Shown piece after piece: positions 755 to 36,775 of a DNA stretch of 64,000 bases. Numbering within the stretch: position 1 is the stretch's first letter; each line of letters opens with the position of its first letter. The notes beneath the pieces are model-generated. The model made no database searches. It was not told the DNA's origin and saw nothing but the letters and a program-made list of their open reading frames with translations. The translations under genes were made by a program, and so were the position numbers. Source of the DNA: an uncultured Candidatus Saccharibacteria bacterium (GTDB taxonomy: Bacteria; Patescibacteriota; Minisyncoccia; Phycocordibacterales; Phycocordibacteraceae). The DNA lies in NCBI GenBank assembly GCA_964349555.1, contig CAYGGK010000002.1, positions 9,258 through 73,257 of the forward strand, in the 5' to 3' direction.

Positions 755-2992
755 ATGAGTCGTAAAAATGACAATGGTGCCAAGCGCTCTCGGACGCGAG
801 AGAAGACGGTCAGAGAGTACGGTACGCTTATTCGTTATGCCTCTACTATCGTGCTGTTGGCCGTCGGCGTGCTCCTTACGCTTGCCCTCTTCGGCGCGGC
901 CGGCCCGGTGGGTACGGCGGTCTTCGCCGCAAGTTATTCAATAGTTGGTATCGGCGCTTTTCTTCTCCCGGTGGCTTTAATTGTGGGGGGGCTTTATGCG
1001 GGATTCGGTCGCCCGACTCTCGCCCCTCTCACTACCTCGGGCGTTATCATCATTACCGCTTCAGTGCTTGCCTTCGCGGGACTCTTCCCCGACGCGGACT
1101 TCGGCGGGAAGACCGGGACCTTACTCGGTGAAGTGCTTGCCGGATTTTTTGGCTTCTGGGGAGCGTTGGTGCTTCTCATAGCGATTATCGCAGTCGGCAT
1201 CGTCATCCTGAGCGACATGGAGATGCTCTGGGCGCTTGTAAGTGAAAATGTTTCTTCTCTTTGGGAGCGGCTCCGCTCACGCAGTAAAGACGACGAAGAA
1301 CTCCCCGAGGAATTCACGGACGTCGTCGGCGTACCAGAGAACAACGACAGCCCTTACGCGCCTGAGGAGGTGCCAGAATCTTCTCAAACACAGGAGAGCG
1401 ATCCTGCGGTGACTGTTTTCTCCGCCAGAGGCGGACCCTCCTCTGGCGAAAATCGTTCCGGCATCGCGAACTTTGATGCCGAGTATGAGGCTCCTCCCCT
1501 CTCCATTCTCGGCGCGGACCGCGGACGCCCTGGTGTCGGGGACATAAAAGCGAATGCGAACATCATCAAACGCACCTTTCAGAACTTCGGCATTAATTTG
1601 GAGATGGACGAAGTCTCCGTCGGCCCGACCGTCACCCGATACGCGGTGAAGCCTGCTGAGGGCGTGCGCCTCTCAAAAATCGTTTCCCTCGCAAATAATC
1701 TTGAGCTCGCGCTCGCCGCGCATCCGGTGCGCATCGAGGCTCCTATCCCGGGGAAATCGCTCGTCGGCATTGAAGTGCCGAATACGGTGAAAGCGATGGT
1801 TGGTCTCGGCGGAATCCTGAGCGCCTCTGAGTGGTCTGACAGTACGAAACCTCTTCTCGCCGCGCTTGGGCGCGATATCACTGGCACACCGCACTACGTC
1901 AACGTCGCGAAGATGCCACACGCGCTCGTCGCGGGCGCAACCGGCTCCGGCAAAAGTGTCGCTATGCACGCGATTATCACTTCCCTGCTCTACCGAAACG
2001 GCCCCAACCAACTACGCTTTATCATGATTGATCCGAAGCGTGTGGAACTTACCGCGTATAACGGCATTCCGCACCTTCTCACCCCTGTCATCACCGACCC
2101 AAAGAAAGCTATCTATGCGCTTAAGTGGGCGGGTAAGGAGATGGAGCGCCGCTACAACATTCTAGAGACGGAGCGCGTACGCGATATTGATTCATACCAC
2201 TCAACTGTCTTTGAGAGAGCGAAGACAAAACAGGCGTCGGAGATGCCAGAGGCGCTTCCCTTCATCGTTATCGTTATAGACGAGCTCGCCGATATCATGC
2301 ACAGCTACCCGCGAGAACTTGAATCCTCTATTGTCCGCCTCGCACAGATGTCGCGTGCGACCGGTATCCACCTCATACTCTCCACTCAGCGTCCGTCGGT
2401 GAACGTCATCACCGGCCTTATCAAGGCAAACGTGCCGACACGCATGGCGCTCCAGGTCGCCTCCCAGATAGACTCGCGCACAATCCTCGACGGCTCCGGT
2501 GCCGAGACGCTACTCGGCGCCGGCGATATGCTCTATCTTTCAAGCGATATGCAGAAGCCTGTGCGTATTCAAACCGCCTTCATCAGCGAGAGCGAAGTAA
2601 AAAAGGTGGTGAGCTACATCCGTGCCCATAATGCGGGAGATCTTTCCAGCATAGACTTCGGCCTGTCCGGCCAGGGCGGTAATGGAGACTCGTCAGCTGA
2701 CGGCGGCGGTTTCGTAAACGGTGGCTTTGATGACGACGAAGAGATTGATGATGCGCTCTACGAGGACGCGCGTGCGGCGGTAGAAGCCGTCGGCCGCGCC
2801 TCAACCTCCTACCTCCAGCGCAAATTGAAAATCGGTTATTCGCGAGCGGCGCGGCTTATGGATGTGCTTGAAACAAAGGGCATTATCGGTCCCGCCGACG
2901 GATCAAAGCCGCGCGAGGTGCTTACCTCGCGAAATGCCGCAACCCAAAGCAGAACGACAGACATTGACGGAGATGAGGGTGATATTTCTTAA
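755..2992 (+). CDS. ftsK: DNA translocase FtsK/SpoIIIE (N-terminal TM helices, linker, C-terminal motor with Walker A GATGSGKS and gamma wHTH)
   Basis: ORF 689..2992; likely start at MSRKNDN (755); motifs VAGATGSGKSV, IVIDELADIM, SYLQRKLKIGYSRAARLMD (gamma domain). Confidence 0.9.
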   Translation: MSRKNDNGAKRSRTREKTVREYGTLIRYASTIVLLAVGVLLTLALFGAAGPVGTAVFAASYSIVGIGAFLLPVALIVGGLYAGFGRPTLAPLTTSGVIIITASVLAFAGLFPDADFGGKTGTLLGEVLAGFFGFWGALVLLIAIIAVGIVILSDMEMLWALVSENVSSLWERLRSRSKDDEELPEEFTDVVGVPENNDSPYAPEEVPESSQTQESDPAVTVFSARGGPSSGENRSGIANFDAEYEAPPLSILGADRGRPGVGDIKANANIIKRTFQNFGINLEMDEVSVGPTVTRYAVKPAEGVRLSKIVSLANNLELALAAHPVRIEAPIPGKSLVGIEVPNTVKAMVGLGGILSASEWSDSTKPLLAALGRDITGTPHYVNVAKMPHALVAGATGSGKSVAMHAIITSLLYRNGPNQLRFIMIDPKRVELTAYNGIPHLLTPVITDPKKAIYALKWAGKEMERRYNILETERVRDIDSYHSTVFERAKTKQASEMPEALPFIVIVIDELADIMHSYPRELESSIVRLAQMSRATGIHLILSTQRPSVNVITGLIKANVPTRMALQVASQIDSRTILDGSGAETLLGAGDMLYLSSDMQKPVRIQTAFISESEVKKVVSYIRAHNAGDLSSIDFGLSGQGGNGDSSADGGGFVNGGFDDDEEIDDALYEDARAAVEAVGRASTSYLQRKLKIGYSRAARLMDVLETKGIIGPADGSKPREVLTSRNAATQSRTTDIDGDEGDIS

Positions 2993-2998
2993 AGGGCG

Positions 2999-3352
2999 AT
3001 GACTCGGTATCTTATCGGCGCGGCGCTCTTTGTTCTTATTGGCTACGGCCTTATAGAAGCGTGGCCGCTTATCAAAGGCCCTTCTCTCTCTATTACCTCT
3101 CCAGCAGACAACGGTTCTTTCCCAGACGGGACGGTACGGATAGAGGGGAGGGTTAAGAGGGCCGCAACAATCACTCTAAACGGTGTTCCGCTTCTTCACG
3201 ACCAGAACGGAAACTTCTCGTCAACGCTTACATTCCCACGCGGAGGATCTATACTTACCCTTACGGTCACCGACCGCTTCGGTAGGACGGTGACCGAGAC
3301 CCGCTCCATCTTCGTCCCGTTTGAGAGCGACCAGCCGCACACTAATAACTAA
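2999..3352 (+). CDS. small secreted/membrane-anchored hypothetical protein (N-terminal TM helix)
   Basis: ORF; hydrophobic N-terminus [19 protein letters not shown]; no recognisable family. Confidence 0.35.
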
Positions 3353-3356
3353 CACC

Positions 3357-4421
3357 ATGGCTTTCGGAAAACCTAAAAAAGAAAAAGTATTGAAAACAAT
3401 TACGGTGGCGAGTGCCGATAAGAGCGAGAAGCAAAAATCCATTGACCAGGCGTTGAAAGAAATCCGCACGAAGTTTGGCGATGAAGCAATCACCACCTTT
3501 GGCGCGGGGGCTCCGCAGAAAATCCCTGTCGTGCCAACTGGTTCTATCGGGCTTGACGCGGCACTCGGAGTGGGCGGCCTCCCGCGCGGGCGCATCATTG
3601 AAGTATTCGGACCGGAGTCTTCCGGTAAAACGACGCTCGCGCTCCACGCGGTCGCTGAGGCGCAGAAAGCTGGCGGTATTGCGGCATTCGTGGACGCCGA
3701 GCACGCTCTTGACCCGGAGTATGCGCGGCGCATCGGCGTGAAGCTCTCTGAACTGCTCATATCCCAGCCGGACACGGGCGAACAGGCGCTTGATATTGTT
3801 GAATCGCTAGTGCGGAGCGGAAACGTGGACATCATCGTCATAGACAGCGTCGCCGCGCTGACGCCGAAAGACGAGATTGAGGGCGAGATGGGCCAACAGC
3901 ACGTCGGCAAACAAGCACGCCTTATGAGCCAGGCGCTACGCAAACTCACGGCTATCGTTGCGCGAAGCAAGACGATCGTTGTTTTCATTAACCAAATTCG
4001 CATGCAAATAGGAGTGATGTTTGGTAACCCTGAGACGACGCCGGGCGGAAAGGCGCTCAAGTTCTACACCTCTGTACGCCTCGATATCCGGCGCATCGCT
4101 TCTATCAAGAAGGGAGAAGAAGTCGTGGGAGGACGTGTGCGAGTGAAAGTTGTGAAGAATAAGGTCGCCGCGCCTTTTAAAACTACCGAATTTGATCTTC
4201 TGTATAACGAAGGCATCAGCAGAGAGGGCGAGCTTATCGCGCTCGGCGAGAAGTTCGGTATCGTAGCGAAGTCAGGCTCTACTTATAAAATGAGCCTGCC
4301 CGGCCAGGGCGAACAAAAACTCGCCGTCGGATATGACGCGACACGCACTTTCCTCCGCGACAACAAAGACATCGCGAAAGAGCTCCTAAAGCAAATTAAA
4401 TTAAAACTGTCCGAGAGTTAG
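3357..4421 (+). CDS. recA: recombinase RecA
   Basis: ATG at 3357 ([10 protein letters not shown]...), Walker [14 protein letters not shown]2/L1 loop regions, typical RecA length. Confidence 0.95.
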
Positions 4422-4756
4422 AGACGTGTGGGAGTGTAGAGGGAAGAAATCGCTCGGACGGATTCGCGAGCTAGATACACGAAAGACACGAAAGAAAGAA
4501 CCGCAAGCACCTGCACCACAAGGCGCGTATGGCCGAATGCGGCTATAAAGAAGTTCGGTAGGTGTGCGAGATTAGTCGGAGCATTTTGAAATACGCGCGC
4601 GACCCACACCTCCTTTCCTATGCCCCACAGAGCAAGGACCAGGGTTAACACTGCGAGCATCCCTGTTGAAATAACGAGTCCGAACAACCGAGCGAGATGA
4701 ATGCGGCGCATGACGGCGCGCTCGATGTGAGATTGGTCATTCATGGTGCTGTTCAT
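4418..4756 (-). CDS. small membrane protein downstream of ECF sigma factor (possible anti-sigma factor)
   Basis: ORF immediately downstream of and co-oriented with the sigma-70/ECF gene; one or two predicted TM helices; assignment by position only. Confidence 0.3.
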
Positions 4757-4768
4757 AGTTCGACATAC

Positions 4769-5355
4769 TCACGACAAGTCATTCTGCTTATCATAGGCTT
4801 GTTTAAAAAGTTTCTTTGCGCGATGGACGCGCGTCTTTACGGCCGGGACTGAGAGCTTCTCTGCCTCCGCGATCTCTTCTTGACTCTTCCCTTCAATGAA
4901 CTGTAACCGTAGTATCTTCGCCGCGGTTTCAGGTAATTTCGCGAGTGCGGCGAGCACCTCATTCCGTATGGAGAGGTCTTCAATAAACTCTGCCCGCGCG
5001 TCCGGCAGTGACTCGTAGTGCTCCGGCTCAAGCTCTGCTCGCTGTCCACTCTCCTTACGTCGAGTAACATACGCAGTGTACGCGACACGATTCAGAATCG
5101 TGTACGCCCACGAAGAAAAACTTGCACCTTCCTGTACGTGAAATTTGTCCGCGTAGAGATACATTTTAGTGAATGCGTCCTGAACTGCCTCCTCGGCGTC
5201 CTCCGGAGAAAATAAAATCTTTCTCGCCCTGCGAAGCAGGGCCGCTTCATAGCGGCGAACAAGCAGGGCGAAGAGCTCGGGCTCCACACGGGAGCGTGCG
5301 AGCACCTCGGCGTCGGAGAGCGCTTCAGGGTCGTCCGCGGTTGAAAAACTCATTG
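4769..5355 (-). CDS. RNA polymerase sigma-70 family ECF sigma factor
   Basis: Region 2 (AEEAVQDAFTKMYLYADKF...) and region 4 HTH (SQEEIAEAEKLSVPAVKTRVHRAKKLFKQ); ORF track extends to 5458, but the extension is encoded by tandem hairpins, so start at MSFSTADD (5355) preferred. Confidence 0.75.
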
Positions 5356-5409
5356 TATCTGCTAGCATACAGATATTCTCGAAAATGTGTAGGTTTGTGG
5401 GGCACTTTT

Positions 5410-5450
5410 CCCCGACGCTTCGGTCGGGGTCCCGACTTCCTACGTCGGGA
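5410..5450. repeat. tandem pair of related GC-rich hairpins (CCCCGAC-GCTTCG-GTCGGGG / TCCCGAC-TTCCTAC-GTCGGGA) in the divergent sigma-factor/efp intergenic region
   Basis: Seen directly in sequence; REP-doublet-like arrangement. Confidence 0.5.
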
Positions 5451-5556
5451 TATAACATTTATATGGCTGGACTAAGTTACTACCAAGTGAGAGAGCAACA
5501 AGCCTCTGTCTGCAGATGCTTGTTCGAACGAACGCAGGGAGAAAGACAAAACTAGT

Positions 5557-6132
5557 ATGGCTGTTTTGTCTTACAACGAAATCCTCAAGGGTAGCGTCAT
5601 AGATCACAACAACGAACCGTATGAGGTTCTCTCTTCGCACATCTTCCGCATGCAGATGCGTAAGCCGGTGAACCAAACGAAGCTTCGCCATCTCGTCTCT
5701 GGAAAAGTCATTGAAATCTCATTCCATCAAAATGAAACGGTGACTGAAGCGGATATAGACAAAATGCAGGCAACTTATCTCTATACCAACAGAGGCGAGA
5801 GCTGGTTTGCACAAGTCGGCAACGCGAAAAATCGTTTTTCATTCCCTGACAACGTGGTGCACGATAAGGTGCAATGGCTCGCCCCAAACAGTATCGTTGA
5901 AGTGCTTACCTACGAAGAGAAGCCGATGATGATAAAAATACCGGTCAAGGTTGAACTTGAAGTTAAAGACGCCCCGCCGTCAGTGAAAGGAAATACGGTC
6001 TCGGGCGGCACGAAGCTTGTCCTACTCTCCACCGGCGCCAAAGTGGACGTGCCTCTTTTCATAAATGTCGGTGATATCGTCCGCATCAACACCGACACTG
6101 GCCTCTACGCCGAACGCGTGACGAAGTCCTAA
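5557..6132 (+). CDS. efp: elongation factor P
   Basis: MAVLSYNEILKGSVIDHNNEPYEVL... KOW-like N domain and two OB domains; length 191 aa. Confidence 0.9.
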   Translation: MAVLSYNEILKGSVIDHNNEPYEVLSSHIFRMQMRKPVNQTKLRHLVSGKVIEISFHQNETVTEADIDKMQATYLYTNRGESWFAQVGNAKNRFSFPDNVVHDKVQWLAPNSIVEVLTYEEKPMMIKIPVKVELEVKDAPPSVKGNTVSGGTKLVLLSTGAKVDVPLFINVGDIVRINTDTGLYAERVTKS

Positions 6133-7349: not shown

Positions 7350-8168
7350 TCAGGGTAACCCATTCGACAAGCTCAGGGTAAATAGGCGCTCCGCGTTCTT
7401 ACAGAGAGTGGCGCGGACGGTTTCGAGGTCGTCGCCTCTTATTTCTGCGATTTTTGCGACGACTTCTACGACGGCGAGAGGGTCGTTCCGAGACCCGCGG
7501 CGACTCGCGGGCGCAACATAGGGTGCATCGGTTTCAGAGAGAATACTCTCGAGCGGTAGAGCCCTTATGACGTCGTCATAGTCGCGCGCGAAGGTGATCA
7601 CTGCGGTAAATGAAAGAGTGAAGTCAAGCGCGATAAGCGCCTGCGCTTCTTCTAGGCCGCCAACAAAGAAGTGTATATCGCCGCGCAACTTGGGAAACTT
7701 GATTTTCGCTTCTTTCAAAATCTCTATCAAATCATGGTATGCATCTTGAGTACCTTTACTCGGGCGAGAATGAATAATGAGCGGTTTATCAAACTCAGCG
7801 GCAAGAATAACTTGGTCATTGAGTATCGCCTCTTGCTTTTGTTTTACCTCGTCATTTATCTGAGCCGGGCGGTAGTAATCGAGCCCGCATTCCCCTATCG
7901 CGACAACCTTCGGGCTCTTTGCTAGTTCTCGGTATTTATCTACTTCATACCACTCATTACTCTCTCTATTGGGATGGAGCCCGACAGAAGCGAAGAGGTG
8001 CTCGTGTTTTTCAGCGAGCGCCACCGCTTTTCTTGAAGACTCCAGGTCAACGCCGACGACAATGCCTGCAACACTCTCTCTACTCATCCGCTCTATGAGC
8101 TCTGCATCATCGGTTTCGTATTGTTCAAACTGTATGTGGCAGTGCGCGTCCACATATTTTATGTTCAT
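7350..8168 (-). CDS. tatD: TatD-family metal-dependent DNase/hydrolase
   Basis: MNIKYVDAHCHIQFEQYE... HxH motif, TIM-barrel amidohydrolase signature; start ATG overlaps metG stop (ATGA). Confidence 0.85.
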   Translation of the reverse strand: MNIKYVDAHCHIQFEQYETDDAELIERMSRESVAGIVVGVDLESSRKAVALAEKHEHLFASVGLHPNRESNEWYEVDKYRELAKSPKVVAIGECGLDYYRPAQINDEVKQKQEAILNDQVILAAEFDKPLIIHSRPSKGTQDAYHDLIEILKEAKIKFPKLRGDIHFFVGGLEEAQALIALDFTLSFTAVITFARDYDDVIRALPLESILSETDAPYVAPASRRGSRNDPLAVVEVVAKIAEIRGDDLETVRATLCKNAERLFTLSLSNGLP

Positions 8169-9610
8169 AATCCTGCCTGCGCAGGCAGGCGCGGGAATAG
8201 GTTGTCCGGCTTTTTGTTTTCAAATACCGCCCTTTTTACCGCCTCGCACGTCGCCGGCATAAATGGGCTGAGGAGTATGGCTATCTGATAGAGCTCGGTA
8301 GCGAGCTCTCTGATGATAATACGTCCTTTTTCTACGTCCTCTTTTACAAGCTTGAAAGGTTCTTCGTGTGTAATGCGTTCATCGAGTCTTTGTATACGAC
8401 TCCAAACAAGATCCATCGCACGATTGAATTCAAACGCATCTATCATGTCCAAGTATTCTCGCGGAAACACGGGCTCTCCCGAGAGGATAACGGGATCTTC
8501 AAGATGAGTTTCGGCGAGCTTCATCACGCGCGCGACAAGGTTACCGAGGCCGTTCGTCAGATTTGCCGTGTACCACTCATCAAGGCGTTCCCAAGTGACG
8601 TCCGAGTCTTCCACCGGGTGGACGTGGCGCAGGAGTATATACCGTGTCGCGTCAGTGCCATATTTCTTCACGAGTTCGTAGGGACTGATAACATTGCCCA
8701 AAGACTTGCTCATCTTCTGCCCGCCACTCGTTATGAATCCGTGGTAAAAGACCGTGTCGGTTGTCTTACTGTCTGCCGACATCAGCATCGCTTGCCACAT
8801 AAGCGACTGAAATCGTACTTGGTCCTTTCCTGCTACCTGAAGCGTTGTTCCCTCTTCCCAAAACTTCTTGAAATCTCCTTGCTCGTCTTCGGGCCAACCG
8901 AGCGTGGAAATATAATTAGTGAGCGCATCAAACCAGACATACATCACCTGCGAATCATCATTCGGGACCGGAATGCCCCATGAGAGCCGTTTTTTCTCGC
9001 GCGAGATGCTGAAATCTTCAAGCCCACCTTTCACAAAGGCAATCGCCTCTTCTTTCCGCCATTCGGGGATGATGACACCGGGACGAGACAGGTATTCGAG
9101 CAGGCGATCATCATATTTCGAGAAGCGGAAGAAATAATTCTCTTCGGTTATCTCCTGAAGTTTCAGATTGGTGTGGGTGGTGCAATGATCGTCCGCTATT
9201 TCTTTCTCGGTTTTGAACGATTCGCATCCTACACAGTACACACCCGTATAGGCTTTCTTGTAGATGTCGCCCGCGATGTCGCACCGCCGCCACATTTCGG
9301 CCGCTGCCGCGTAGTGGCGCCGTTCTGTGGTGCGAATGAAAACATCGTTTGAGAGGTCAAGTGCGGTGCCGAGCTTTCGGAATTCGTCCGCATAGTGATC
9401 GACGTATGCATGCACGTCCTGTCCCGCTTTCTCTGCGGCTTCGTATATTTTCTGGCCGTGCTCGTCGGTACCAATCGAGAAAAAGACATCATTGCCCGCA
9501 AGCCGCCACGCGCGCGCGAGTGCATCTGCCTGAACGAATTCAAGCGCGTGCCCAAGGTGCGGATCCGCGTTCACATACGGGAGCGTCGTGGTGACGTAGC
9601 GCACACTCAT
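8165..9610 (-). CDS. metG: methionyl-tRNA synthetase (class I, no C-terminal tRNA-binding domain)
   Basis: PYVNADPHLGHALEFVQAD (HIGH region), KMSKSLGN, zinc knuckle CVGCESF. Confidence 0.9.
   Translation of the reverse strand: MSVRYVTTTLPYVNADPHLGHALEFVQADALARAWRLAGNDVFFSIGTDEHGQKIYEAAEKAGQDVHAYVDHYADEFRKLGTALDLSNDVFIRTTERRHYAAAAEMWRRCDIAGDIYKKAYTGVYCVGCESFKTEKEIADDHCTTHTNLKLQEITEENYFFRFSKYDDRLLEYLSRPGVIIPEWRKEEAIAFVKGGLEDFSISREKKRLSWGIPVPNDDSQVMYVWFDALTNYISTLGWPEDEQGDFKKFWEEGTTLQVAGKDQVRFQSLMWQAMLMSADSKTTDTVFYHGFITSGGQKMSKSLGNVISPYELVKKYGTDATRYILLRHVHPVEDSDVTWERLDEWYTANLTNGLGNLVARVMKLAETHLEDPVILSGEPVFPREYLDMIDAFEFNRAMDLVWSRIQRLDERITHEEPFKLVKEDVEKGRIIIRELATELYQIAILLSPFMPATCEAVKRAVFENKKPDNLFPRLPAQAGL
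8172..8189. repeat. 18-bp perfect palindrome CCTGCCTGCGCAGGCAGG (family 2) forming the last codons of metG (..LPAQAGL*) next to the tatD start
   Basis: Seen in sequence; identical copy at 62987..63004 in holA. Confidence 0.8.
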
Positions 9611-9612
9611 AC

Positions 9613-10677
9613 TTAGAACTCGGGGGTGGGTACGGCGCGACGCTTCCTCTTATCAAAGTCAGAAACGAATTCCAGTGCGACCGCCGCGACCGGCACCGAG
9701 AGCAGTACGCCGAGGAATCCCGCGAGCGTGTATCCGGCGATAAGCGCCACAATGACCAGGAGCGGCGGAATGCCGATGATCTTCTTCACGATGAGAGGAT
9801 AAATGAGGTTTGATTCAAATTGGTTCACGACAATATAGAGGCCGGCGACGATGGCCGCAATCGCAACACCACCGTAAGAATAGGCGATAGCGACCGCCAC
9901 TACGCCCGACAGGAGAGAACCGAAGATAGGGATGATTTCAATCACCGCGGTGAAGACCGCGAGAAGAAGCGCGTGGGGGACGCCGATAATGAGCAGGCCG
10001 AGATAGACAAGCACGCCGACAATGACCGATAGAAGTATCTGTCCCTGCATCCAGAGTCCTATCTTTTTCTGCGACCGCTTCCAGAGATCAACGGAATATT
10101 CTTCATATTTTATCGGCATGACCATGCGCAGAAAGTCATCAACGCCGGTTTCTTGAAGTGCGAAGTAGAAAGAGAGCACGATGACGAGCGCGAGCGAAAA
10201 AACGCCGCCGAAGAAGGTAGAGAGCAGTTGTAGCACGCCGCCAGAGGCCGCGGTGAATGCCGACTGGAACGAAAGAAGCGTCTCTATGAATGATCCCGGT
10301 TGGCCGATGCTTACACCAGGATTGCTTGCGGAGGTGATGCTTGAGAACGAGCCGGTGAGATTAAACATCTCAAGATACTGCGGCATAACGGAGAGGAAGT
10401 TTGCCGCATCAGCTACAATTGGTGGAAAGAAAAAATAAATGACCGAAAAAACAGAACCGAACACCAGCGCATATACTAGAAGCGCGGCGGCGAAGCGCGG
10501 GATGCGATACCGGATGAAAAACGCGATTCCCGGCTCTATCGCCGAGGCGATAACGATGGCGGTGAGCACCAAGAGCGCGAGGTCGCGCAAGAGCCACAAA
10601 AGGTAAACTCCCGCGACAACACACAGCGCGGCAACGATGGTCCCGGACGTGATGGAAACCCGTATTTCCTTACCCAT
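9613..10677 (-). CDS. AI-2E family (UPF0118/PerM-like) transporter, multi-pass membrane protein
   Basis: Eight or so hydrophobic segments; typical length and pattern of the AI-2E/YhhT family. Confidence 0.6.
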   Translation of the reverse strand: MGKEIRVSITSGTIVAALCVVAGVYLLWLLRDLALLVLTAIVIASAIEPGIAFFIRYRIPRFAAALLVYALVFGSVFSVIYFFFPPIVADAANFLSVMPQYLEMFNLTGSFSSITSASNPGVSIGQPGSFIETLLSFQSAFTAASGGVLQLLSTFFGGVFSLALVIVLSFYFALQETGVDDFLRMVMPIKYEEYSVDLWKRSQKKIGLWMQGQILLSVIVGVLVYLGLLIIGVPHALLLAVFTAVIEIIPIFGSLLSGVVAVAIAYSYGGVAIAAIVAGLYIVVNQFESNLIYPLIVKKIIGIPPLLVIVALIAGYTLAGFLGVLLSVPVAAVALEFVSDFDKRKRRAVPTPEF

Positions 10678-12125: not shown

Positions 12126-14009
12126 TTATTGCACAATTGCCCTTGCGCTGGTATACCCGGGGTCCCCTTTCGTCTCTGTTGTTGATGGGCTTGCGGATGC
12201 TTGTATCTGCACCCCGGCAAAGCGGTCGTAGCCAGAGAATGAGAGCGCGCCGGTGAGCGTCGGCGTATCGCCTCTCTGAGAAGAAGAAGGGATGAGGGAA
12301 ATCTGAAATACTCCTTTTGCGGTCGCTCCTTGGGCGATATTGCCGACATTCCAAGTCACTGTGCGGGAGGCGCTGTCATACGAGAAAGAGCCGGCGCCAG
12401 CCGTTGCTCCAGTGTATGAGACGTAGCTCGGAAGCGTTGCCGAGACAACGCCGTCGGCAATCGTACTGCCAGTGTTGTGTGCACTCCATTCGACCGTGTA
12501 CGTCGTCGCTTGTCCGGAGCGTGGAGGAACGGGGCCGCTGTTACTCAAAGGTCCAGATGAGTAGAGGGAAGACGCGGAGAGCGCCACTACCGTAGCAACT
12601 TTTACTGTCTTGACTATAGAAGCACTTATCCGCTCCGGTACACTCGTCTGACCAACGCGAGTGCCAGACACGGAGGTGGTGAGCGTTATCGTCGGCGCGA
12701 CTCCGAGAGATCCTGCCGGTAGGGTTGAGAAGGTGAAAGAACCGATACCGGATGTGCCGGGAGCGAGGTTTGCGAGAGAGGGGTCGGTATCTCTGCTAAA
12801 CGTAATCGTACGATCTAGAGAGTGATAGAAGCCGTTTGTTGTTTCAATACTGTCGTAATCAATTGCAGAACCTGAAATGGTGACAACAATCGTGGCGTTC
12901 GTAACACTGGTGGGAAGCGTATTAACGTACGAGACCGTTACATTATGGTGATCCTTTGGAGTGATGGCGACGTTGGCCGCCGTATCGCCGTTGAGAGAGA
13001 GTGTTGTGGCGATGAACGGCGCCGTAATCAGCATTTTCGCCTCTTGAGTCATATATGCAACGACTGATGCTTGGTCGTCGGTCGTTTTTGAGGTCCCAAC
13101 GGTGAAGTGGAAAACGCGCTGTTCCCCGTCCTGTCCTACCAGAATCCCGGTGAGCGTTACTGTTTTACTCGCTCCGGGCGCCAAAGAGCCAAGGGAGAAG
13201 TTTGATCCGCTCATTGGTAAGGATGAGTCGGTTACCGAAAAGCCGAACGGCGAAACATAAGTGAGAACGACATCGTCGAGTGGCACGGTCGCATTTGAGC
13301 GAACGGTGAGCGTGAAGGTAAGTGGTTTCCCCGAGACGGTTTCTGAGAGCGTATTCACCGACACCGAGAGTGGCGCCGAAGAGACCGTAAGCGTATAAGA
13401 AATCTTTTTCACAAAAACGGAGTTGGAACCGGCCGTCTCGAAAGAAACGGACACGGGCAAAAGAAGCGTCTGCCCCGCTTCGCCGAAGACGACGGCTTTT
13501 ATTGACCTGGTTATCGCCTCGCCACTCGCGAGCTGACCCAACTCTTCCGTATAGCGCGGGTAGGCACTGCGCGTATCGTCCGCGTCCAGCGTACCCGGTG
13601 GAAAGCCAATCTCTATGATCGCATTTTCAACAGGGACCGGGTTTCTGTTTGTAATGGTAATGGAAAGCGGGACGGTATCACCAGCGGCAATAGTCGTCGG
13701 GCCCTGTATATCAATGGTAATTTTATCTACGGAGACGGCGTTGCCGCCAAAATAAAAGAAGTAACCGGCGGCGCCCAGCGATATGATAAAGAAAACAAAC
13801 GCGGTGATAAAAAATATGCCAGCGAGACGTACGTGTCGTTTGCCGCGATGCGGAATATCTTCAAGCGAATGATCCTCCCACGCATGCGCCAACTCTCTCT
13901 CATTAGAGTGAACAAGGGAGGAACGTTCGTGTGAAGAATCGTCCGGCTCATACAGCCGTTTGCGTGCCCTCTCGAGTGCCCCGATGTCGTCTTCTGATTT
14001 AGGCGGCAT
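12126..14009 (-). CDS. large membrane-anchored surface protein with repeated Ig-like/DUF11(CARDB)-like Ser/Thr-rich domains
   Basis: N-terminal cytoplasmic segment, single TM (IFFITAFVFFIISLGAAGYFFYF), then about 520 aa of repetitive S/T/V-rich beta-type sequence; typical of envelope proteins in reduced genomes. Confidence 0.45.
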   Translation of the reverse strand: MPPKSEDDIGALERARKRLYEPDDSSHERSSLVHSNERELAHAWEDHSLEDIPHRGKRHVRLAGIFFITAFVFFIISLGAAGYFFYFGGNAVSVDKITIDIQGPTTIAAGDTVPLSITITNRNPVPVENAIIEIGFPPGTLDADDTRSAYPRYTEELGQLASGEAITRSIKAVVFGEAGQTLLLPVSVSFETAGSNSVFVKKISYTLTVSSAPLSVSVNTLSETVSGKPLTFTLTVRSNATVPLDDVVLTYVSPFGFSVTDSSLPMSGSNFSLGSLAPGASKTVTLTGILVGQDGEQRVFHFTVGTSKTTDDQASVVAYMTQEAKMLITAPFIATTLSLNGDTAANVAITPKDHHNVTVSYVNTLPTSVTNATIVVTISGSAIDYDSIETTNGFYHSLDRTITFSRDTDPSLANLAPGTSGIGSFTFSTLPAGSLGVAPTITLTTSVSGTRVGQTSVPERISASIVKTVKVATVVALSASSLYSSGPLSNSGPVPPRSGQATTYTVEWSAHNTGSTIADGVVSATLPSYVSYTGATAGAGSFSYDSASRTVTWNVGNIAQGATAKGVFQISLIPSSSQRGDTPTLTGALSFSGYDRFAGVQIQASASPSTTETKGDPGYTSARAIVQ

Positions 14010-14033: not shown

Positions 14034-14603
14034 TCAAAGGCCAGAGGCGTCGAGACCGTTATTGATGCGCACGATGTATTTTGTGCGATTTTTTGAAATA
14101 TCGGCAAGCGGCTCCGGAGCGAACATAGACACTCCGCTCGGAATGTCTCCCGCATCAAGTCCGAGCGCTGACAACACGTGAAGCGCGGCGAGCACTTCGG
14201 CGGCCTCATGCGTTTCTTCAGGAAGCGTGGCGAGTGTTTCAAAAAATCCTCTGATGATTTGGGAAAGCGCCGGATCGCGAATTTCGCCGGCAACGAGGCG
14301 GAGCAGGAGACTAGAGATGCGTCCCGCTCGCGTGCGCGACTCGGCACCGCCGAGCCGCATGAACCAGTTTTCTGCGAGAACGGCCCCCGCGACTCTCCAG
14401 CCTTCTTTCCCGCGCACGAGCACGACGTCGCTCTCGGCAAAAGTGGTGAGCGCCGCGGCGAGCTTTGCGCCTGGACGGCGAAGTCCTTGCGCCCGCGCGC
14501 GCACAAGGCCTACATCGACAGTAATGAGTGTAACGAATGCATTCGCCTCTCCGAGCGGTGAACGAGAGAGTACGATGCCGCGTGTCTCGTATTTATGCCG
14601 CAT
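14034..14603 (-). CDS. recO: DNA repair protein RecO-like (short form)
   Basis: N-terminal OB-fold region MRHKYETRGIVLSRSPLGEANAFVTLITVDVGLVRARAQG characteristic of RecO; 189 aa. Confidence 0.6.
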   Translation of the reverse strand: MRHKYETRGIVLSRSPLGEANAFVTLITVDVGLVRARAQGLRRPGAKLAAALTTFAESDVVLVRGKEGWRVAGAVLAENWFMRLGGAESRTRAGRISSLLLRLVAGEIRDPALSQIIRGFFETLATLPEETHEAAEVLAALHVLSALGLDAGDIPSGVSMFAPEPLADISKNRTKYIVRINNGLDASGL

Positions 14604-17600
14604 CAGAAACGAGATTAAACTGCACGGTGCCCGTCGAGAGCGTGGCTGAGTACTTCCCTGCCTGACCGGCGGTCAGGCCCTCCGGCCGAATCTCGACGCG
14701 TACTTTATCTTTCGGCGAGAGCCCTTCCGTTTTACGCGCTTCGGCGACGGCGCGCGCCATCTCGCGCTCATCGCCTTCCTTAATGAGGGAGGGCGTGAGG
14801 ACCGCATCGAGAGCAAGTTCTTCGCCTACAATTATCTTTTTCACATTCACCTCCTCAGCGAGAAGCTGAGCCAGCTCACTACTAAGCGCCCCGATGACAG
14901 TGAGGCTCGCGAGCGGTTGCCGTACTTTAATTCCGGCCTTCTGTCGCAGTTGTAGCGCTTCTGATGCGAGGGCGCGCACGCGGTTCATGTCGGCGACAAC
15001 CTTCCTTTTCTTGCTTCCGCCAAAGAGTTCCCACTTCCCCTGTATCAGAGGCCAATCGGCAAGATGTACGCTTTCCGAGTCACTGGTCTCTCGGACCTCT
15101 TGAAAGATTTCTTCAGCGATGAACGGCATAACGGGCGCCGCCACTTTAGAAAACTCCTTGAGTACCTGCCGCAGAGTAGAGAGCGCATTCGCCTTGTCTC
15201 CATCATCGTCACTTTTCACCCGATCACGAGAGCGGCGTATATACCACGTTGAAAAGTCGTCAATAAATTCGCGCATCGGTCGTGTGGCGTGTGGGACGTC
15301 ATAGCGGTCGAATGCCTCGGTTGTCGTTGCTACAAGTTCTTCGAGTCTGGCGAGAATCCAACTGTCCAGAACATTTTTACTCATAGCATTGGCAGGCCCG
15401 GCATCATCTTTATAGAGCACGTAAAAGGCGAGGATGTTTCGTAGCATGTTTACCACCCGCGCATGTACCTCCTTTATTTCTTCGTCGCGAAAGGTAATAT
15501 CTTCGGCCTGCATCACAACCGACGACATAAGGTAAAAACGGAACGCATCAGCACCGTAACGATCAAAGAGCTCGTATGGATCAGTATAATTCTTCTTACT
15601 CTTTGAGACTTTTGCGCCGTCAGCGGCAAGTATGTTGCCGGTCGTAATAACGTTTCGAAATGCAAGACGACCAAAAACCTCTATTCCTATTGCGTGCAGA
15701 TAGTAAAACCATGCGCGCGTTTGTCCGATATATTCTGAGACGAAGTCTCCTGGCGAACGCTTTTCAAACTCTTTTTTATTCTCGAACGGATAATGGTATT
15801 CGGCGAACGGCATGGAGCCGGACTCCACCCAACAATCAACAACTTCAGGAACGCGCGTGAGCGTATTCCCCTTCTCATCTTCAAGCTGAATTTGGTCAAT
15901 GTACGGCAAGTGGAAATCAAGCTCGTAATCGCGATTGTGCGGAAGCGGTATAAAATCGAGCTTGCGCAGGCTGGCAGTCTTCGCGTAGAGGGGCCAGACG
16001 AGCCTGAGCGACTCTTTCTTGTCAGCGCCGAGCGCGACGGAGCCGAGCGCTTCAAATCCAATACCGTGTGTAACAATCAAGATAGTCTGGTTCGTCTGAC
16101 TTCGCTCAATTTCATACAAGAATTCTCCAAAACGATTCTTAGCGTCCTGATAACTCTCGCCGCCCGGGACGTGGTCGTCAAACTGACGTGCATCCCGGTA
16201 AGCCTGAAACTCCGTCACGGGCCGATTGTTAAGCTCTCCAAATTCAAACTCGCGTAGACGGTCATCATAAATCACCGCCTCTTTGGGGATTTTAAGCTCC
16301 TCAACAATAACTTCGACCGTTTCGCGCGTACGTTGAAGCGGCGAGGCATACACACGCGTAGGGCGCGGCAGGGTGGGCGCTACCGCTTTAACCTCAACCC
16401 TCCCTTTGTCTGTAAGAGGGTTCCCTATTCGACTATTGCTTGCGATCCCTTTTACATTGTTTTCTGATTCGCCGTGGCGCATCACGAAGTACGTGTTGCC
16501 TGATTTCTTCGTGTGTTTCTTAAGTTCTTCAAGAGACCCGACGACCGTTACGTTTCCTTTTTCATCCTTCCAGATAGGGAGCGGACTGGCCCAGAAGCGA
16601 TTACGAGAGATGGTCCAGTCAGGCGCAGTCTCGAGATTGTGTTTGAAGCGGCCCTCTTTAAGGTGTCCCGGAACCCAGTTGATTTTCTCGCTCTCAAGAA
16701 GCATCTTCTCTTTTACATCTTGAATGTTTATGAACCAGCTTGAGACGGCATTGTAGATAAGAAGCGTGCCGCAACGGTAACAGTGCGGATACGAGTGGGT
16801 GTGTGAGGCTTTCGCGAATAACAGACCGCGGCTCTCCAGGTCTTCTTTAATTAAATGTTCTGCTTTTTTAATGTATTGTCCGCGCAAGAATTCCGGCGCA
16901 TCATCGTTGTACGTTGCGTTCGGATTCAAAAGCGGCACCATCGGCAACCCCTCTTTCAACCCAAGATTGTAATCGTCCTCTCCGTAGATGACAGCGGTAT
17001 GCACGATACCTGTTCCTTCCTCGGTGTGTACGAAATCTGCCGGGAGCACCTGCCACTTCTTGCCTGCGTACTCTTTTACTTTTTCCACTGCGTAGAGCGG
17101 TTCGTAGGTGAGGCCAACCAGTTTTCCCCCAGACAGCTTCTGTAAAACTTCGGCACCGGGCAGAATGGCAGACAGCCTCTCTTCTGCAAGCCAGACATCT
17201 CCCTTGTCAGTGTGCGCAAGTACGTACTGGATTTCAGGCCCAACGGCCAAGGCGACATTCCCGGGAAGCGTCCACGGAGTGGTAGTCCACGCGAGGAAAT
17301 ACTCGTTTTCTCTCCCTATAATCTTAAACTTGATCGTTACCGCCTCTTCGGTGATGTCTTTGTAGGTATTGTCCATCGCGATTTCCGCTTTTGCGAGAGG
17401 CGTCTCGCAGTGCGGACAGTACACAAGCACTTTCCTACCCTCATAGAGCCGACCTCTTTTATGAATTTCCTTGAGCGCCCACCACACACTCTCAATGAAC
17501 GAATTGTCCATCGTCTTATATGAATTGTTGAAATCAACCCACCGCCCAACACGCTCAATGTATCGCTTCCAGTCACGCACATATTCGAGGACTAGGGAGC

Positions 17601-17949
17601 GGGCAGTCTCGTTAAATTTTTCTATGCCGAGTGCGAGTATTTCTTTTTTATTCTTCAATCCGAGTCTTTTCTCCACTTCCGACTCTATCGGGAGCCCGTG
17701 AGTGTCCCAGCCCCATCGGCGACGCACATAATAACCGCGCATCGTTTTGTAGCGCGGTATAAGATCTTTCGATACCGAGGAGAGCAGTGAGCCGGAATGT
17801 GGCAGCCCTGTTGCAAATGGCGGGCCGTCATAAAAAGTAAACTCACCTTTCGGGGACTTCTTCGCGAGCGATTTCTCAAAGATGCGTTCTCGATCCCAAA
17901 ATGCGAGTATCGCCTCTTCGCGTTTCGCAACCTCTGATTTCTCTAGCAT
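14593..17949 (-). CDS. ileS: isoleucyl-tRNA synthetase (type 2) containing an inserted histidine-phosphatase (PGM-like) domain
   Basis: PPFATGLPHSGS (HIGH-like), editing-domain WTTTPWTLPGN / GTGIVHTAVIYGEDDY, WTISRNRFWASPLPIW, KVSKS (KMSKS-like), then an insertion at residues ~483-676 with RHGESENN ... SPLQRTRETV ... IVTHGIGF. Confidence 0.9.
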   Translation of the reverse strand: MLEKSEVAKREEAILAFWDRERIFEKSLAKKSPKGEFTFYDGPPFATGLPHSGSLLSSVSKDLIPRYKTMRGYYVRRRWGWDTHGLPIESEVEKRLGLKNKKEILALGIEKFNETARSLVLEYVRDWKRYIERVGRWVDFNNSYKTMDNSFIESVWWALKEIHKRGRLYEGRKVLVYCPHCETPLAKAEIAMDNTYKDITEEAVTIKFKIIGRENEYFLAWTTTPWTLPGNVALAVGPEIQYVLAHTDKGDVWLAEERLSAILPGAEVLQKLSGGKLVGLTYEPLYAVEKVKEYAGKKWQVLPADFVHTEEGTGIVHTAVIYGEDDYNLGLKEGLPMVPLLNPNATYNDDAPEFLRGQYIKKAEHLIKEDLESRGLLFAKASHTHSYPHCYRCGTLLIYNAVSSWFINIQDVKEKMLLESEKINWVPGHLKEGRFKHNLETAPDWTISRNRFWASPLPIWKDEKGNVTVVGSLEELKKHTKKSGNTYFVMRHGESENNVKGIASNSRIGNPLTDKGRVEVKAVAPTLPRPTRVYASPLQRTRETVEVIVEELKIPKEAVIYDDRLREFEFGELNNRPVTEFQAYRDARQFDDHVPGGESYQDAKNRFGEFLYEIERSQTNQTILIVTHGIGFEALGSVALGADKKESLRLVWPLYAKTASLRKLDFIPLPHNRDYELDFHLPYIDQIQLEDEKGNTLTRVPEVVDCWVESGSMPFAEYHYPFENKKEFEKRSPGDFVSEYIGQTRAWFYYLHAIGIEVFGRLAFRNVITTGNILAADGAKVSKSKKNYTDPYELFDRYGADAFRFYLMSSVVMQAEDITFRDEEIKEVHARVVNMLRNILAFYVLYKDDAGPANAMSKNVLDSWILARLEELVATTTEAFDRYDVPHATRPMREFIDDFSTWYIRRSRDRVKSDDDGDKANALSTLRQVLKEFSKVAAPVMPFIAEEIFQEVRETSDSESVHLADWPLIQGKWELFGGSKKRKVVADMNRVRALASEALQLRQKAGIKVRQPLASLTVIGALSSELAQLLAEEVNVKKIIVGEELALDAVLTPSLIKEGDEREMARAVAEARKTEGLSPKDKVRVEIRPEGLTAGQAGKYSATLSTGTVQFNLVSDAA
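14657..14677. repeat. family-2-related palindrome CCTG-CCTGACCGGCGGTCAGG in the ileS C-terminus (encodes GLTAGQAG)
   Basis: Shares the CCTGCCTG arm with the metG/holA elements; centre differs. Confidence 0.5.
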
Positions 17950-18345
17950 AGTTCCTCTATTCTAGCGTTTGCGGCATAAAAAGCGAACGACCGGGGGAGT
18001 AATGCTCCTCCCGGCCGCGTTGTTGCTTAGTGTGCTTGCCGCTCAGTTGCGCATGGGAGCGCCGTGATAAGGAGCAGGCGGCCGCCAGTTACGCCGTTTA
18101 TGCCGACATACGGTAAAGCTGTCTTTTCGTCGCGGTTTATCTGCTACAGCCACTGCCTGACTGGAAGGCTCTTGACGTTCGTCGCTATCAGATTCTGCGA
18201 CTTCATCCATCATTTTCATCATTTCAAGATGGGCTTTAGTTCCGGAACGACTCCTCCTAAAAGACATCTAATCCCCCATTCTGTTTGTGACGGCACGGAA
18301 TGTGCAGTCCGAGGAGAATATAACATCCTATTATTTTTATACAAC

Positions 18346-19986
18346 CTACATTTTCTCCGGTGTGGGGATACCGAGAAGCATGAGACCGTTCGTCATGGTG
18401 GAGACAAAGGCTCGCGCAACGAGAAGATGGTGCCCCTCATGCGCTCCGCCGATAATCCGCTCTTGCGCATAAAAAGAATTCCATTCGCCCGCGAGCTCGG
18501 TGAGATAATTCACGAGCAAGTTCGGGGCGAGCTCGCGCGCGGCTCGCGCGGTAATTTCCGGGAAATGAAGAATAATGCGTTCCAGAACATACGGATTCTC
18601 CTGTACTTCCGCATCTGATGCGTCAGCACGAGCCTGCTGGCTCGCTCTTGCGAGCACGCTTCGTGCCCGAACAAGTGCATATTGCAGATACGGCCCCGAG
18701 TCGCCTTCAAGCGAAAGCGATTTTTCTTCATCAAAGATGATGTCCGAGCCGGGCGCCTGCCGGAGGATCATGTATTTAATAGCTCCGATAGCAACCTGCT
18801 CGGCGATAAGCGGATCTTCATTTTTCTCACTCACCTTCTCAATCACGCTTTGGATAAAGTCAGTGGCGGCAATGACATTCCCTTCGCGCGAAGACATCTT
18901 CTCTCCCGAGGAAAGCTTCAGAAATCCTGTTGCGATAACTTCGGTTTTCGCGGCGAGAAGCGGAGCAACTTCAGAGAGTGCCGCGAGCACAGTCTTGAAG
19001 CGTCCGGTCTGCTCATTGCCGGTCACGACAACGACCTTGCTTGAGGGCCATCGCTCCTCTTTAAGAAATGCGAGGCCGATATCCTTGGCCTCGTAGGTCG
19101 GTGTGTTCTTTGAGGTTATAAAGACCATCGTGTGAACGCCCTTCTTCTCGCCGTTATAAATAACAGCGCCATCGCTCATCTCAAAGATCCCCTTCTCGAG
19201 TCCATCGCGCACCACGCGTAGCCCTGTCTCGGTTGTATCGCTGTCAAAAAATTCAAAATCAAAGCGTGTCCCGAGCAATTTCCAAATGCGACGAAACTCT
19301 GCTACCGACACGTCGCGGCCCTTTCTCCAGAGTTCCATCAGACTCTTGTCCGTACCAGCGTAGATCGCTTGATTAAGTGCGTCTATCTCTTCTCTCACCT
19401 GCGTATCGGTCTCGTACGCGCTTGAGCCCTCTGCGTACGCCTCGCCGACCTCTCGTGCACTTGCGGGCTCGGCGACACCACTCTTCTGCAGACCCCAGAG
19501 CGCCTTCGCAACATTCGGCCCGATATCGCCACCGAAGGTGTCCCGCGCCACGGTCGCTCCCGTATTTTCAATGAGCCGTGCAGCCGACTCGCCGATAACG
19601 GTCCCTACCAAATGTCCGATATGCATCTCTTTAAATACATTTGGATTTGAGTATTCAACCATAACTCTCCTCCCCCTAAACACTTCGTTCTGCGAAGTGT
19701 CGGGCGACCCAGCTTCGCTGGGTTTAGCCTTCCCCCATTCCTCACCTTTCGCATAAGCTTCGGCAATGGCGAGCGTCACCGCCGCGCGCGAGAGCGTAAT
19801 GTTCACGAATCCCTTTCCCGCGACTTCAACTTTCGCCGCGGACTCGCCGAGCTCGCTGCGGATCGCCTGCGCCGCCGACTCTGCCTGTTCCGGCCCAATA
19901 AAAACAGAGTAGTCGCCAAAATCAAGGTGCGGCGGCCGTCGAATAACCACCTCTCTCCCGATCGCTTTTCGTATCCGCTCTTCCAT
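18346..19986 (-). CDS. argS: arginyl-tRNA synthetase
   Basis: N-terminal Arg_tRNA_synt_N domain, EYSNPNVFKEMHIGHLVGT (HIGH), DALR anticodon-binding C-terminus. Confidence 0.9.
   Translation of the reverse strand: MEERIRKAIGREVVIRRPPHLDFGDYSVFIGPEQAESAAQAIRSELGESAAKVEVAGKGFVNITLSRAAVTLAIAEAYAKGEEWGKAKPSEAGSPDTSQNEVFRGRRVMVEYSNPNVFKEMHIGHLVGTVIGESAARLIENTGATVARDTFGGDIGPNVAKALWGLQKSGVAEPASAREVGEAYAEGSSAYETDTQVREEIDALNQAIYAGTDKSLMELWRKGRDVSVAEFRRIWKLLGTRFDFEFFDSDTTETGLRVVRDGLEKGIFEMSDGAVIYNGEKKGVHTMVFITSKNTPTYEAKDIGLAFLKEERWPSSKVVVVTGNEQTGRFKTVLAALSEVAPLLAAKTEVIATGFLKLSSGEKMSSREGNVIAATDFIQSVIEKVSEKNEDPLIAEQVAIGAIKYMILRQAPGSDIIFDEEKSLSLEGDSGPYLQYALVRARSVLARASQQARADASDAEVQENPYVLERIILHFPEITARAARELAPNLLVNYLTELAGEWNSFYAQERIIGGAHEGHHLLVARAFVSTMTNGLMLLGIPTPEKM
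19680..19723. repeat. pair of adjacent hairpins (ACACTTCG-TTCTG-CGAAGTGT and ACCCAGC-TTC-GCTGGGT) inside the argS inter-domain linker (encodes ..KPSEAGSPDTSQNEVF..)
   Basis: Seen in sequence; located in a low-complexity linker between the N-terminal and catalytic domains. Confidence 0.5.
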
Positions 19987-32668: not shown

Positions 32669-32674
32669 GTGGCT

Positions 32675-33442: not shown

Positions 33443-33448
33443 GAGACG

Positions 33449-36762: not shown

Positions 36763-36775
36763 ATAATCGTACACA

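Follow-up and report, generated by a model that had tools for sequence, protein, structure and literature searches.

We describe here a gene for isoleucyl-tRNA synthetase (IleRS), ileS, that lies in a 64,000-nt stretch of the patescibacterial contig CAYGGK010000002.1 (hereafter the window, meaning the whole of the stretch that was analysed) and encodes a type-2 enzyme with a histidine phosphatase domain nested within its CP3 region. The fused gene is the joined form of a two-gene unit, a histidine phosphatase gene (hp) followed by ileS, that survives unfused in related Paceibacteria. Judged from its sequence and its predicted structure, the nested domain is a compact phosphomonoesterase-type branch-1 histidine phosphatase and not a mutase. 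We tentatively favour the view that phosphatase and synthetase act jointly and that selection has for this reason maintained their association.

A phosphatase nested in the CP3 region of IleRS

The gene and its parts are as follows.

14593..17949, minus strand: ileS, type-2 isoleucyl-tRNA synthetase with nested phosphatase, 1118 amino acids, stop codon included (open reading frame; TIGR00392)
16504..17949, minus strand: N-terminal part of IleRS, residues 1-482 (equivalent to 1ILE residues 11-482; Pfam tRNA-synt_1 at 14-483)
15922..16503, minus strand: inserted segment, residues 483-676, histidine phosphatase domain with short linkers (no counterpart in 1ILE or 8C8U)
15955..16488, minus strand: His_Phos_1 (PF00300) match, residues 488-665 (E = 1.6e-32, 113.2 bits)
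14596..15921, minus strand: C-terminal part of IleRS, residues 677-1118 (equivalent to 1ILE 488-789; Pfam Anticodon_1 at 862-1013; weak DUF5915 match)
15598..15612, minus strand: KMSKS signature, here KVSKS, residues 780-784 (K780, S782, K783 and S784 invariant in family alignment A1)

A sequence-only reading of the window had placed an extra domain at residues 483-676, carrying the blocks FVMRHGESENN, SPLQRTRET and ILIVTHGIGF, and had assigned it to the histidine phosphatases. The coordinates were confirmed exactly, and the assignment is borne out by the hidden Markov model match to His_Phos_1. The segment reads SGNTYFVMRHGESENN...SPLQRTRET...ILIVTHGIGF...PLPHNRDYE. The score of 113.2 bits compares with a gathering score of 21.7, and the match is nested between two tRNA-synt_1 halves. 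On alignment with the IleRS of T. thermophilus (1ILE), residues 8-482 correspond to 11-482 and residues 677-969 to 488-789, while the IleRS2 of P. megaterium passes from residue 478 to 480 at the point of insertion; the junctions are clean. Since the flanks align throughout, about 190 amino acids replace a loop of about five residues in canonical IleRS2, and no part of the synthetase has been lost.

The full-length AlphaFold2 model has a pLDDT of 83.3 overall and of about 90-95 over the insert. In the model, strands at 459-461 and 467-469 and a helix at 473-479 are followed by the phosphatase domain and then by a helix at 683-686; the phosphatase is therefore predicted to be nested between the two helices of CP3. 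CP3 comes straight after the CP2-CP3 linker (W-x-ISRNR-x-W), which lines the pocket for the tRNA CCA end and reveromycin (PMC7955072). It is located at the periphery of the enzyme, and is β-β-α-α in Candida IleRS with another topology in two bacterial structures (PMC7191050). In human IARS1 this subdomain serves as an interface between proteins (PMC13439101). The catalytic pocket of the phosphatase fold is at the opposite end of the strands from the points at which the chain enters and leaves. As entry is at the beginning of the first β strand and exit after the last, the pocket in the model probably faces the solvent and is directed away from the body of IleRS. The C-terminal linker of the insert has a column identity of 0.89, equal to that of the catalytic core, and this suggests that the orientation of the domain is fixed.

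The remainder of IleRS is intact, as had been supposed, with editing motifs, KVSKS and anticodon-binding domain all present and nothing missing by comparison with 1ILE. The NCBIfam ileS equivalog TIGR00392 matches over its full length at 797.8 bits (cutoff 621.4). Residues 1-482 comprise the first half of the Rossmann fold, the CP core, the CP1 editing domain, CP2 and the first half of CP3 (β-β-α); residues 677-1118 supply the second CP3 helix, the second Rossmann half with KVSKS, the anticodon-binding domain and the type-2 C-terminal domain. The CP1 editing domain contains WTTTPWT at 221-227 and GTGIVHTAVIYGEDD at 312-326, both of which are invariant in alignment A1. The C-terminal organisation is that of the type-2 enzymes, comprising Anticodon_1 and a weak match to DUF5915, without a zinc-binding C-terminal domain and with an ARD3/DUF5915-like end. 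The NCBIfam scores of the 1118-residue protein likewise indicate MupA/MupB-like, i.e. type-2, affinities, and the best Foldseek matches to the whole model are the P. megaterium IleRS2 (8C8V) and yeast IleRS, with IleRS1 lower. No other ileS and no free-standing His_Phos gene was found in the 64-kb window, in which the sole other class-I match is MetRS (8168-9649). A complete IleRS and a catalytically intact inserted domain, as far as sequence can tell, support the earlier suggestion of a functional-looking synthetase with a fused phosphatase module.

The active site and the type of phosphatase

The presumed catalytic residues of the domain, with their conservation, lie at the following positions.

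16471..16479, minus strand: RHG motif, with R491, the presumed nucleophile H492, and G493 (R and H in 152/152 non-truncated copies)
16330..16332, minus strand: R540 of SPLQRTRET, second phosphate-binding arginine (kept in 160/160 copies)
16249..16251, minus strand: E567, presumed general acid, L-R-E motif (kept in 154/161 copies)
16063..16071, minus strand: THG motif with the second catalytic histidine, H628 (kept in 156/156 copies)

The counts refer to 161 copies of the domain from representatives at 50% identity, and at each position only those copies that include it were counted. The domain is otherwise the fastest-evolving part of the protein, with a mean column identity of 0.56 compared with 0.67-0.89 elsewhere. 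Catalytic residues that are fixed on a drifting background therefore point to selection on catalysis.

The sequence neighbours of the domain in the PDB are PspA, TIGAR, PhoE and FBPase-2; the first true cofactor-dependent phosphoglycerate mutase (dPGM) appears at E = 1e-4. An AlphaFold2 model of the domain alone (pLDDT 93.8, pTM 0.91) has the α/β/α fold of the phosphoglycerate-mutase-like proteins. Its best Foldseek match is PspA (4IJ6), with a TM-score of 0.83 and a root-mean-square deviation of 2.2 Å, followed by the riboflavin-pathway phosphatase 9MMH, GpgP, CobC and PhoE; the mutases rank lower.

The domain had been described as phosphoglycerate-mutase-like. This is correct at the level of the superfamily, but it does not extend to the mutases themselves. 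Every dPGM model scores far below its cutoff (dPGM_arch 81.7 against 225 bits, GpmB 48.8 against 261, PRK01295 37.2 against 316), and the nearest relatives are phosphomonoesterases of about 200 residues. The phosphatase equivalogs also fall below their cutoffs (PspA 50 against 350, CobC TIGR03162 70.6 against 162.9, PRK15004 47.3 against 250), and one relative (P0155) scores 70 bits with the sixA model, for which the cutoff is 74.5. The dPGM enzymes have about 250 residues, a C-terminal tail that caps the active site, and HGN after the second histidine. The nested domain has about 185 residues and reads THGIG at that position, and its last strand leads straight back into IleRS.

Authenticity and spread of the fused gene

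Contigs of three independent samples contain a gene for exactly this protein, and each shows ArgRS upstream or RecO downstream wherever it extends that far. In a cluster search of a collection of 5.8 billion proteins the best 120 clusters (90% identity; 63-100% identical to the query) all carry PF00300 together with tRNA-synthetase families. They include contigs of up to 693 kb, and their named members are Patescibacteria or Paceibacterota. The insert is thus lineage-wide and not chimeric. Its GC content and GC content at third codon positions are those of the host gene, and no flanking repeats were found around it. An assembly chimera is ruled out by the three samples, the 120 clusters, the native composition, the continuous open reading frame, the clean junctions and the lack of flanking repeats. 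A recent mobile insertion or an intein was also rejected, given the lack of repeats, the native composition and the fact that the insert is common down to 63% identity; we take the residues at the junctions to be unlike those of an intein.

The split form and the gene neighbourhood

Two genes flank ileS in the window.

18346..19986, minus strand: argS, upstream neighbour in the order argS - (hp) - ileS - recO (this order with a free hp in L085 and L088)
14034..14603, minus strand: recO-like gene, downstream neighbour (RecO_N; likewise after ileS in L085 and L088)

Stand-alone relatives of the nested domain, of 195 (P0217) and 189 amino acids (P0184), are encoded directly upstream of insert-less ileS genes (984 and 931 amino acids respectively). 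The split loci L085 and L088 have the order argS - hp - ileS - recO followed by a DUF11/CLIPPER-like gene, which is the order of the window plus a separate hp, and the open reading frames of a Staskawiczbacteria genome (L019) give the same hp-ileS arrangement. In the split loci a single nucleotide separates the stop codon of hp from the ATG of ileS, and this suggests translational coupling. Stand-alone protein and nested domain stop at the same point of the sequence, the former with …LRKLN and the stop codon, the latter with …LRKLD-F… in the fused protein. Among the matches listed, with flanks of up to 10 kb, neither an insert nor an adjacent hp was seen in the Saccharibacteria, Gottesman-, Magasanik-, Morani- and Peregrinibacteria or the other phyla sampled.

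A further locus, L090, contains argS and hp followed by a convergent insert-less ileS at 2685-5609 on the minus strand. The reading frame of this ileS is split in two by a stop codon located close to where residue 391 lies in the window protein. The stop could be a sequencing error, the mark of a pseudogene or a recoded stop; UGA is read as glycine in some Patescibacteria.

The gap between argS and ileS in the window (17950-18345) is about 400 nt, which is long for a compact genome; hp occupies this place in the relatives with the split operon. No T-box or other leader RNA was found in the gap by Rfam, even at E <= 1. Downstream of recO, at 12126-14009 on the minus strand, is a gene for a 627-residue repeat protein of DUF11/CLIPPER-like type that has a hydrophobic segment at its N terminus; the gene follows recO in L001, L085 and L088 also.

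Insertion sites and copy number in relatives

When only the insert was used as the query in an exhaustive search without profiles, 573 representatives were returned at E <= 1e-10. Class-I synthetase sequence is attached in 94 of the best 150 of these, and 93 of the 94 have IleRS-type motifs. Insertion at the CP3 position (site 1) can be followed from the distance between W-x-ISRxRxW and D-x-W-x-x-SG. Among the matches listed this is 57-83 residues in 31 insert-less type-2 IleRS sequences and 246-261 in eight single-copy carriers with both motifs. It reaches 446 in a two-copy IleRS from the Peribacteria.

Two further sites are used in the Gracilibacteria, Peregrinibacteria and Peribacteria. At site 2 the phosphatase lies between DxWxxSG and QTRGWF, and at site 3 it is about 75 residues past KMSKS, ahead of the anticodon-binding domain. 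In 120 such proteins the phosphatase is at site 3 only in 44, at site 1 only in 40, at sites 2 and 3 in 10 and at site 2 only in five; there are six mixtures, two unassigned and 13 with none. The number of His_Phos_1 copies per IleRS ranges from one to four. In the Gracilibacteria and Peregrinibacteria the catalytic residues are kept in 45-46/46 copies at site 1, 18/18 at site 2 and 58/58 at site 3; the position of E567 in the site 2 copies is Glu in 14, Asp in three and Asn in one. In one relative (P0340), the single example of its kind, site 2 is occupied by a HAD phosphatase and the protein lacks His_Phos_1 altogether.

Enzyme domains occur in frame and in various combinations at sites 2 and 3 of several relatives: P0155 (L084, 8001-12260), P0197, P0165 and P0280-P0363. 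In others a Y1_Tnp (IS200-like) or DUF559 (Vsr-like endonuclease) domain lies in frame within the CP1/editing region (P0230, 340-461; P0363, 346-470; P0357, 294-399).

The role of the phosphatase

The phosphatase would be expected to hydrolyse a phosphomonoester via phosphorylated His492 as the intermediate; the phosphate would be bound by R491, R540 and H628, and E567 would serve as the acid. It would take no part in the chemistry of aminoacylation, and would not be a phosphoglycerate mutase. The substrate would most likely be a small phosphorylated molecule tied to the reaction or the active site of IleRS; it might be AMP or another nucleotide-like product, or else an antimetabolite or competitor that carries a phosphate. 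A small ligand seems likelier than RNA because of the structural neighbours and the near-neutral charge of the domain (pI 6.4).

We lean towards a working partnership of the two enzymes, while holding to it loosely, because the pair has persisted through deep divergence. The partner is IleRS throughout, whether the two form a closely spaced operon or a fusion at any of three sites; the linker is conserved, and in one case a HAD domain takes the place of the phosphatase. Split, fused and replaced forms together are a classic comparative-genomic signature of functional partnership.

Several observations weigh against this reading. In structure the domain is closest to ordinary phosphatases of metabolism, and it is near neutral and not basic. 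CP3 is peripheral and of variable topology between IleRS structures, and contact of CP3 with tRNA is not reported. In related lineages the same loops of IleRS also host GNAT domains, AAA_33/AAA_18/Zeta-like P-loop kinases, a Ser-hydrolase, DUF559 and the IS200-like Y1_Tnp, and such unrelated guests would be expected of 'permissive landing pads' no less than of a specific coupling. Gene adjacency itself, rather than joint function, could be the cause of the repeated fusion, and the replacement by HAD is one example. Neighbour-joining trees place the carriers in several IleRS clades among non-carriers, with the phosphatase domains grouping by site, although these trees are rough and poorly resolved and do not fix the number of independent insertion events.

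The strongest alternative is that the domain is a housekeeping phosphomonoesterase that was once a neighbour of ileS and has been captured repeatedly into permissive loops, uncoupled from the function of its host. The host gene being essential and constitutively expressed, a precise deletion would be hard to achieve while co-expression costs nothing, and the fusion would persist with no need of a joint function. The metabolic nature of the nearest relatives, which act on small molecules, the peripheral and variable CP3, and the many unrelated domains in the same loops, mobile-element nucleases (DUF559 and Y1_Tnp) among them, all favour such a capture. So do the faster evolution of the domain relative to the IleRS core and the presence of more distant stand-alone homologs in unrelated gene contexts. 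We nevertheless consider it rather unlikely. The association spans two classes of Patescibacteria, in split and fused form and at three sites, always with IleRS and not with other nearby aminoacyl-tRNA synthetase genes; the 1-nt spacing suggests coupled translation and the linker is conserved; and in one lineage a non-homologous phosphatase is found in the same place.

It is also conceivable, though improbable, that the phosphatase is directed to tRNA or protein, removing a 2′- or 3′-phosphate, a cyclic phosphate or a pyrophosphate from damaged or toxin-modified tRNA-Ile, which could then be charged, or reversing an inhibitory phosphorylation of IleRS. The kinase and HAD domains of relatives would then form an end-healing set like that of Pnkp. 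CP3 directly follows the linker that lines the CCA and reveromycin pocket, and the nested domain is without a C-terminal tail, so that its predicted pocket may be more open than that of PspA or dPGM. Relatives pair His_Phos_1 or HAD with AAA_33-type kinases, as does T4 Pnkp, a healer of broken tRNA (PMC3592404), and toxins that pyrophosphorylate the CCA end of tRNA block aminoacylation (PMC11559606). Against this, the domain is not basic, its nearest folds are small-molecule enzymes and not the protein phosphatase SixA, and the kinase-bearing variants are few and lie outside the clade of the window protein. We know of no member of the histidine phosphatase family that acts on RNA ends. Neither the insert nor P0217 gave a match to a defence system in PADLOC (P0184 gave a weak match only), PHROGs returned an unannotated family only, and a need limited to tRNA-Ile is hard to explain.

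A broader version of this idea sees in the phosphatase, and in the kinase, GNAT, HAD and hydrolase domains of relatives, the parts of a repair or antidote system that is tethered to its target and serves isoleucylation. The phosphatase might then remove a blocking 2′/3′-phosphate or pyrophosphate from tRNA-Ile at its CCA end, or alternatively destroy a phosphorylated inhibitor or antimetabolite at the active site of IleRS. We regard this as unlikely; if true, it would be a new layer of quality control or defence inside an aminoacyl-tRNA synthetase.

A glycolytic dPGM fused to IleRS in a streamlined genome is very unlikely. The archaeal-type dPGM is the top NCBIfam model among the phosphatase families (81.7 bits, and 92 for the stand-alone P0217), the superfamily includes dPGM, and the 64-kb window has no other His_Phos gene. 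However, these scores are far under the cutoff of 225, the dPGM structures rank below PspA, CobC and PhoE, the sequence after the second histidine is THGIG and not HGN, there is no C-terminal tail, and two to four tandem copies of a mutase make little sense.

A non-catalytic role, as a structural spacer, an allosteric ligand sensor or a docking surface, would suit the variable copy number (for a spacer or docking surface) and the use of CP3 as a protein interface in human IARS1 (PMC13439101), but it is most improbable given that the catalytic set is essentially invariant in >280 copies of a domain that drifts elsewhere. The chance that the architecture is an artefact of assembly or annotation is negligible, with no point in its favour and the samples, clusters, composition, reading frame and junctions described above all against it.

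The HIGH motif

The class-I HIGH signature of the window protein departs from the HxGH consensus.

17788..17799, minus strand: class-I HIGH signature, variant HSGS (H51 and G53 invariant in the family)

The first histidine and the glycine are kept and the fourth residue is changed from His to Ser, so the motif is a variant and is not absent. The sequence-only reading had noted HSGS as deserving attention. The variant is real, but it is no peculiarity of this protein, since serine is found at the fourth position in 108 of the best 120 clusters (with His in nine, Thr in two and Asn in one). Among the matches listed, other carriers of the insert have HYGH, GIHH or GLHH, HIGL, HHGS, HVGN, HIGN and HSGN; GIHH or GLHH is found in L007, L009, L010 and L011. 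Because other carriers have HYGH, GIHH/GLHH, HIGL and HHGS, we consider HSGS to be independent of the insert, and a link between the two was rejected on the grounds of these varied signatures.

The fourth position of the motif varies in other class-I enzymes, as in TIGN of TrpRS and HVGG of GluRS, so HSGS need not impair function. We infer that the body of IleRS would charge tRNA-Ile normally despite HxGS. A survey of 379 IleRS sequences found only HXGH and the swapped form G/AXHH, the latter of which confers hyper-resistance to mupirocin (PMC10485003). As that survey gives only these two, loss of the fourth histidine in IleRS2 seems to be unreported, and HxG(S/N/L) would widen the range of natural variants known for the class-I HIGH motif of IleRS2.

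Other features of the window

Genes for three class-I synthetases, MetRS (8168-9649, minus strand), ArgRS and IleRS, are clustered within 12 kb; of these, only IleRS has an additional domain. There are eight scattered tRNA genes. Two stretches, 32000-38000 and 42000-46000, have a GC content of 0.43-0.47 compared with about 0.52, and may be acquired islands. The first contains a free-standing gene for an IS200-like Y1_Tnp (37508-38182), an open reading frame of 565 residues resembling peptidase C39 (35065-36762) and a weak match to an α/β-hydrolase; the second contains a resolvase-HTH-like open reading frame (42261-42950) and a glycosyltransferase of 875 residues (43474-46101).

Significance

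Aminoacyl-tRNA synthetases are among the most conserved enzymes, and accessory catalytic domains are rare in the bacterial ones. If the partnership is real, there would be an unrecognised phosphate-dependent step connected to isoleucylation. There are also consequences for annotation. Many of the fused proteins are listed by NCBI as 'class I tRNA ligase family protein', 'GNAT family N-acetyltransferase' or 'hypothetical protein', so that these genomes may be counted as lacking ileS. In metabolic reconstructions of reduced genomes the nested domain could be miscounted as a phosphoglycerate mutase.

Comparison with known systems

The window protein matches IleRS2 (8C8V) and 1ILE in sequence and fold over their whole length. 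It differs from both in having about 190 extra residues in CP3 that form a second enzyme, and in having HSGS in place of HxGH. The zinc-binding motif of CP3 in the Thermus enzyme (PMC7191050) is not evident in the sequence flanking the insert. The IleRS2 enzymes with G/AXHH (PMC10485003) have swapped the first and third positions of the HIGH motif, while the window enzyme keeps His1 and Gly3 and loses His4; both are natural departures from HxGH in a type-2 IleRS.

The nested domain has the fold (TM-score 0.78-0.83) and size class of PspA (4IJ5), PhoE (1H2E), CobC (6NRU), GpgP (Rv2419c, 4PZ9), 9MMH and TIGAR. It shares the catalytic set RHG / R / E / H with these compact phosphatases, at 21-27% identity, but unlike them it has no free C-terminus and is nested inside another enzyme. 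The position aligned with His85 of PspA, a residue reportedly important for that enzyme, is Phe570 in the window domain.

An active histidine phosphatase is joined to an unrelated enzyme in PFK-2/FBPase-2 and in the mycobacterial RNase H / acid phosphatase (NF005567, which matches the insert at 60.7 bits). Those are end-to-end fusions, whereas the phosphatase in the window is nested and its host is an aminoacyl-tRNA synthetase. PFK-2/FBPase-2 pairs the phosphatase with a P-loop kinase, as do the IleRS proteins of relatives; the window protein has no kinase. T4 Pnkp (PMC3592404), in which a P-loop kinase and a phosphatase act on tRNA, provides only a functional analogy to the AAA_33 and histidine phosphatase or HAD domains of the relatives. 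Its phosphatase is of the DxDxT (HAD) type, unlike the histidine phosphatase of the window protein, in which there is no kinase domain.

NF040702, an IleRS with an N-acetyltransferase domain, is a curated precedent for an IleRS with an accessory catalytic domain, in another lineage and with another domain. Membership of the window protein in this family (ileS_w_GNAT) was rejected, as it contains no GNAT domain and scores 307 bits against a cutoff of 1999; the GNAT-bearing IleRS of the Gracilibacteria scores 245. There is no curated model for a phosphatase-bearing IleRS among the matches listed.

The sequence-only reading had been unaware of any description of the architecture. In the literature searched we found no description of a phosphatase nested in or partnered with IleRS, and to that extent this holds. 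On the other hand the fused proteins are numerous in sequence databases, and the automatic names given by JGI already list extra domains on some relatives. Multidomain aminoacyl-tRNA synthetases and fusions of histidine phosphatases are of a known kind; what is new is the split hp-ileS form, the use of three sites within one synthetase, the occasional company of GNAT, P-loop kinase or hydrolase domains, the single replacement by a HAD phosphatase and the presence of one to four copies.

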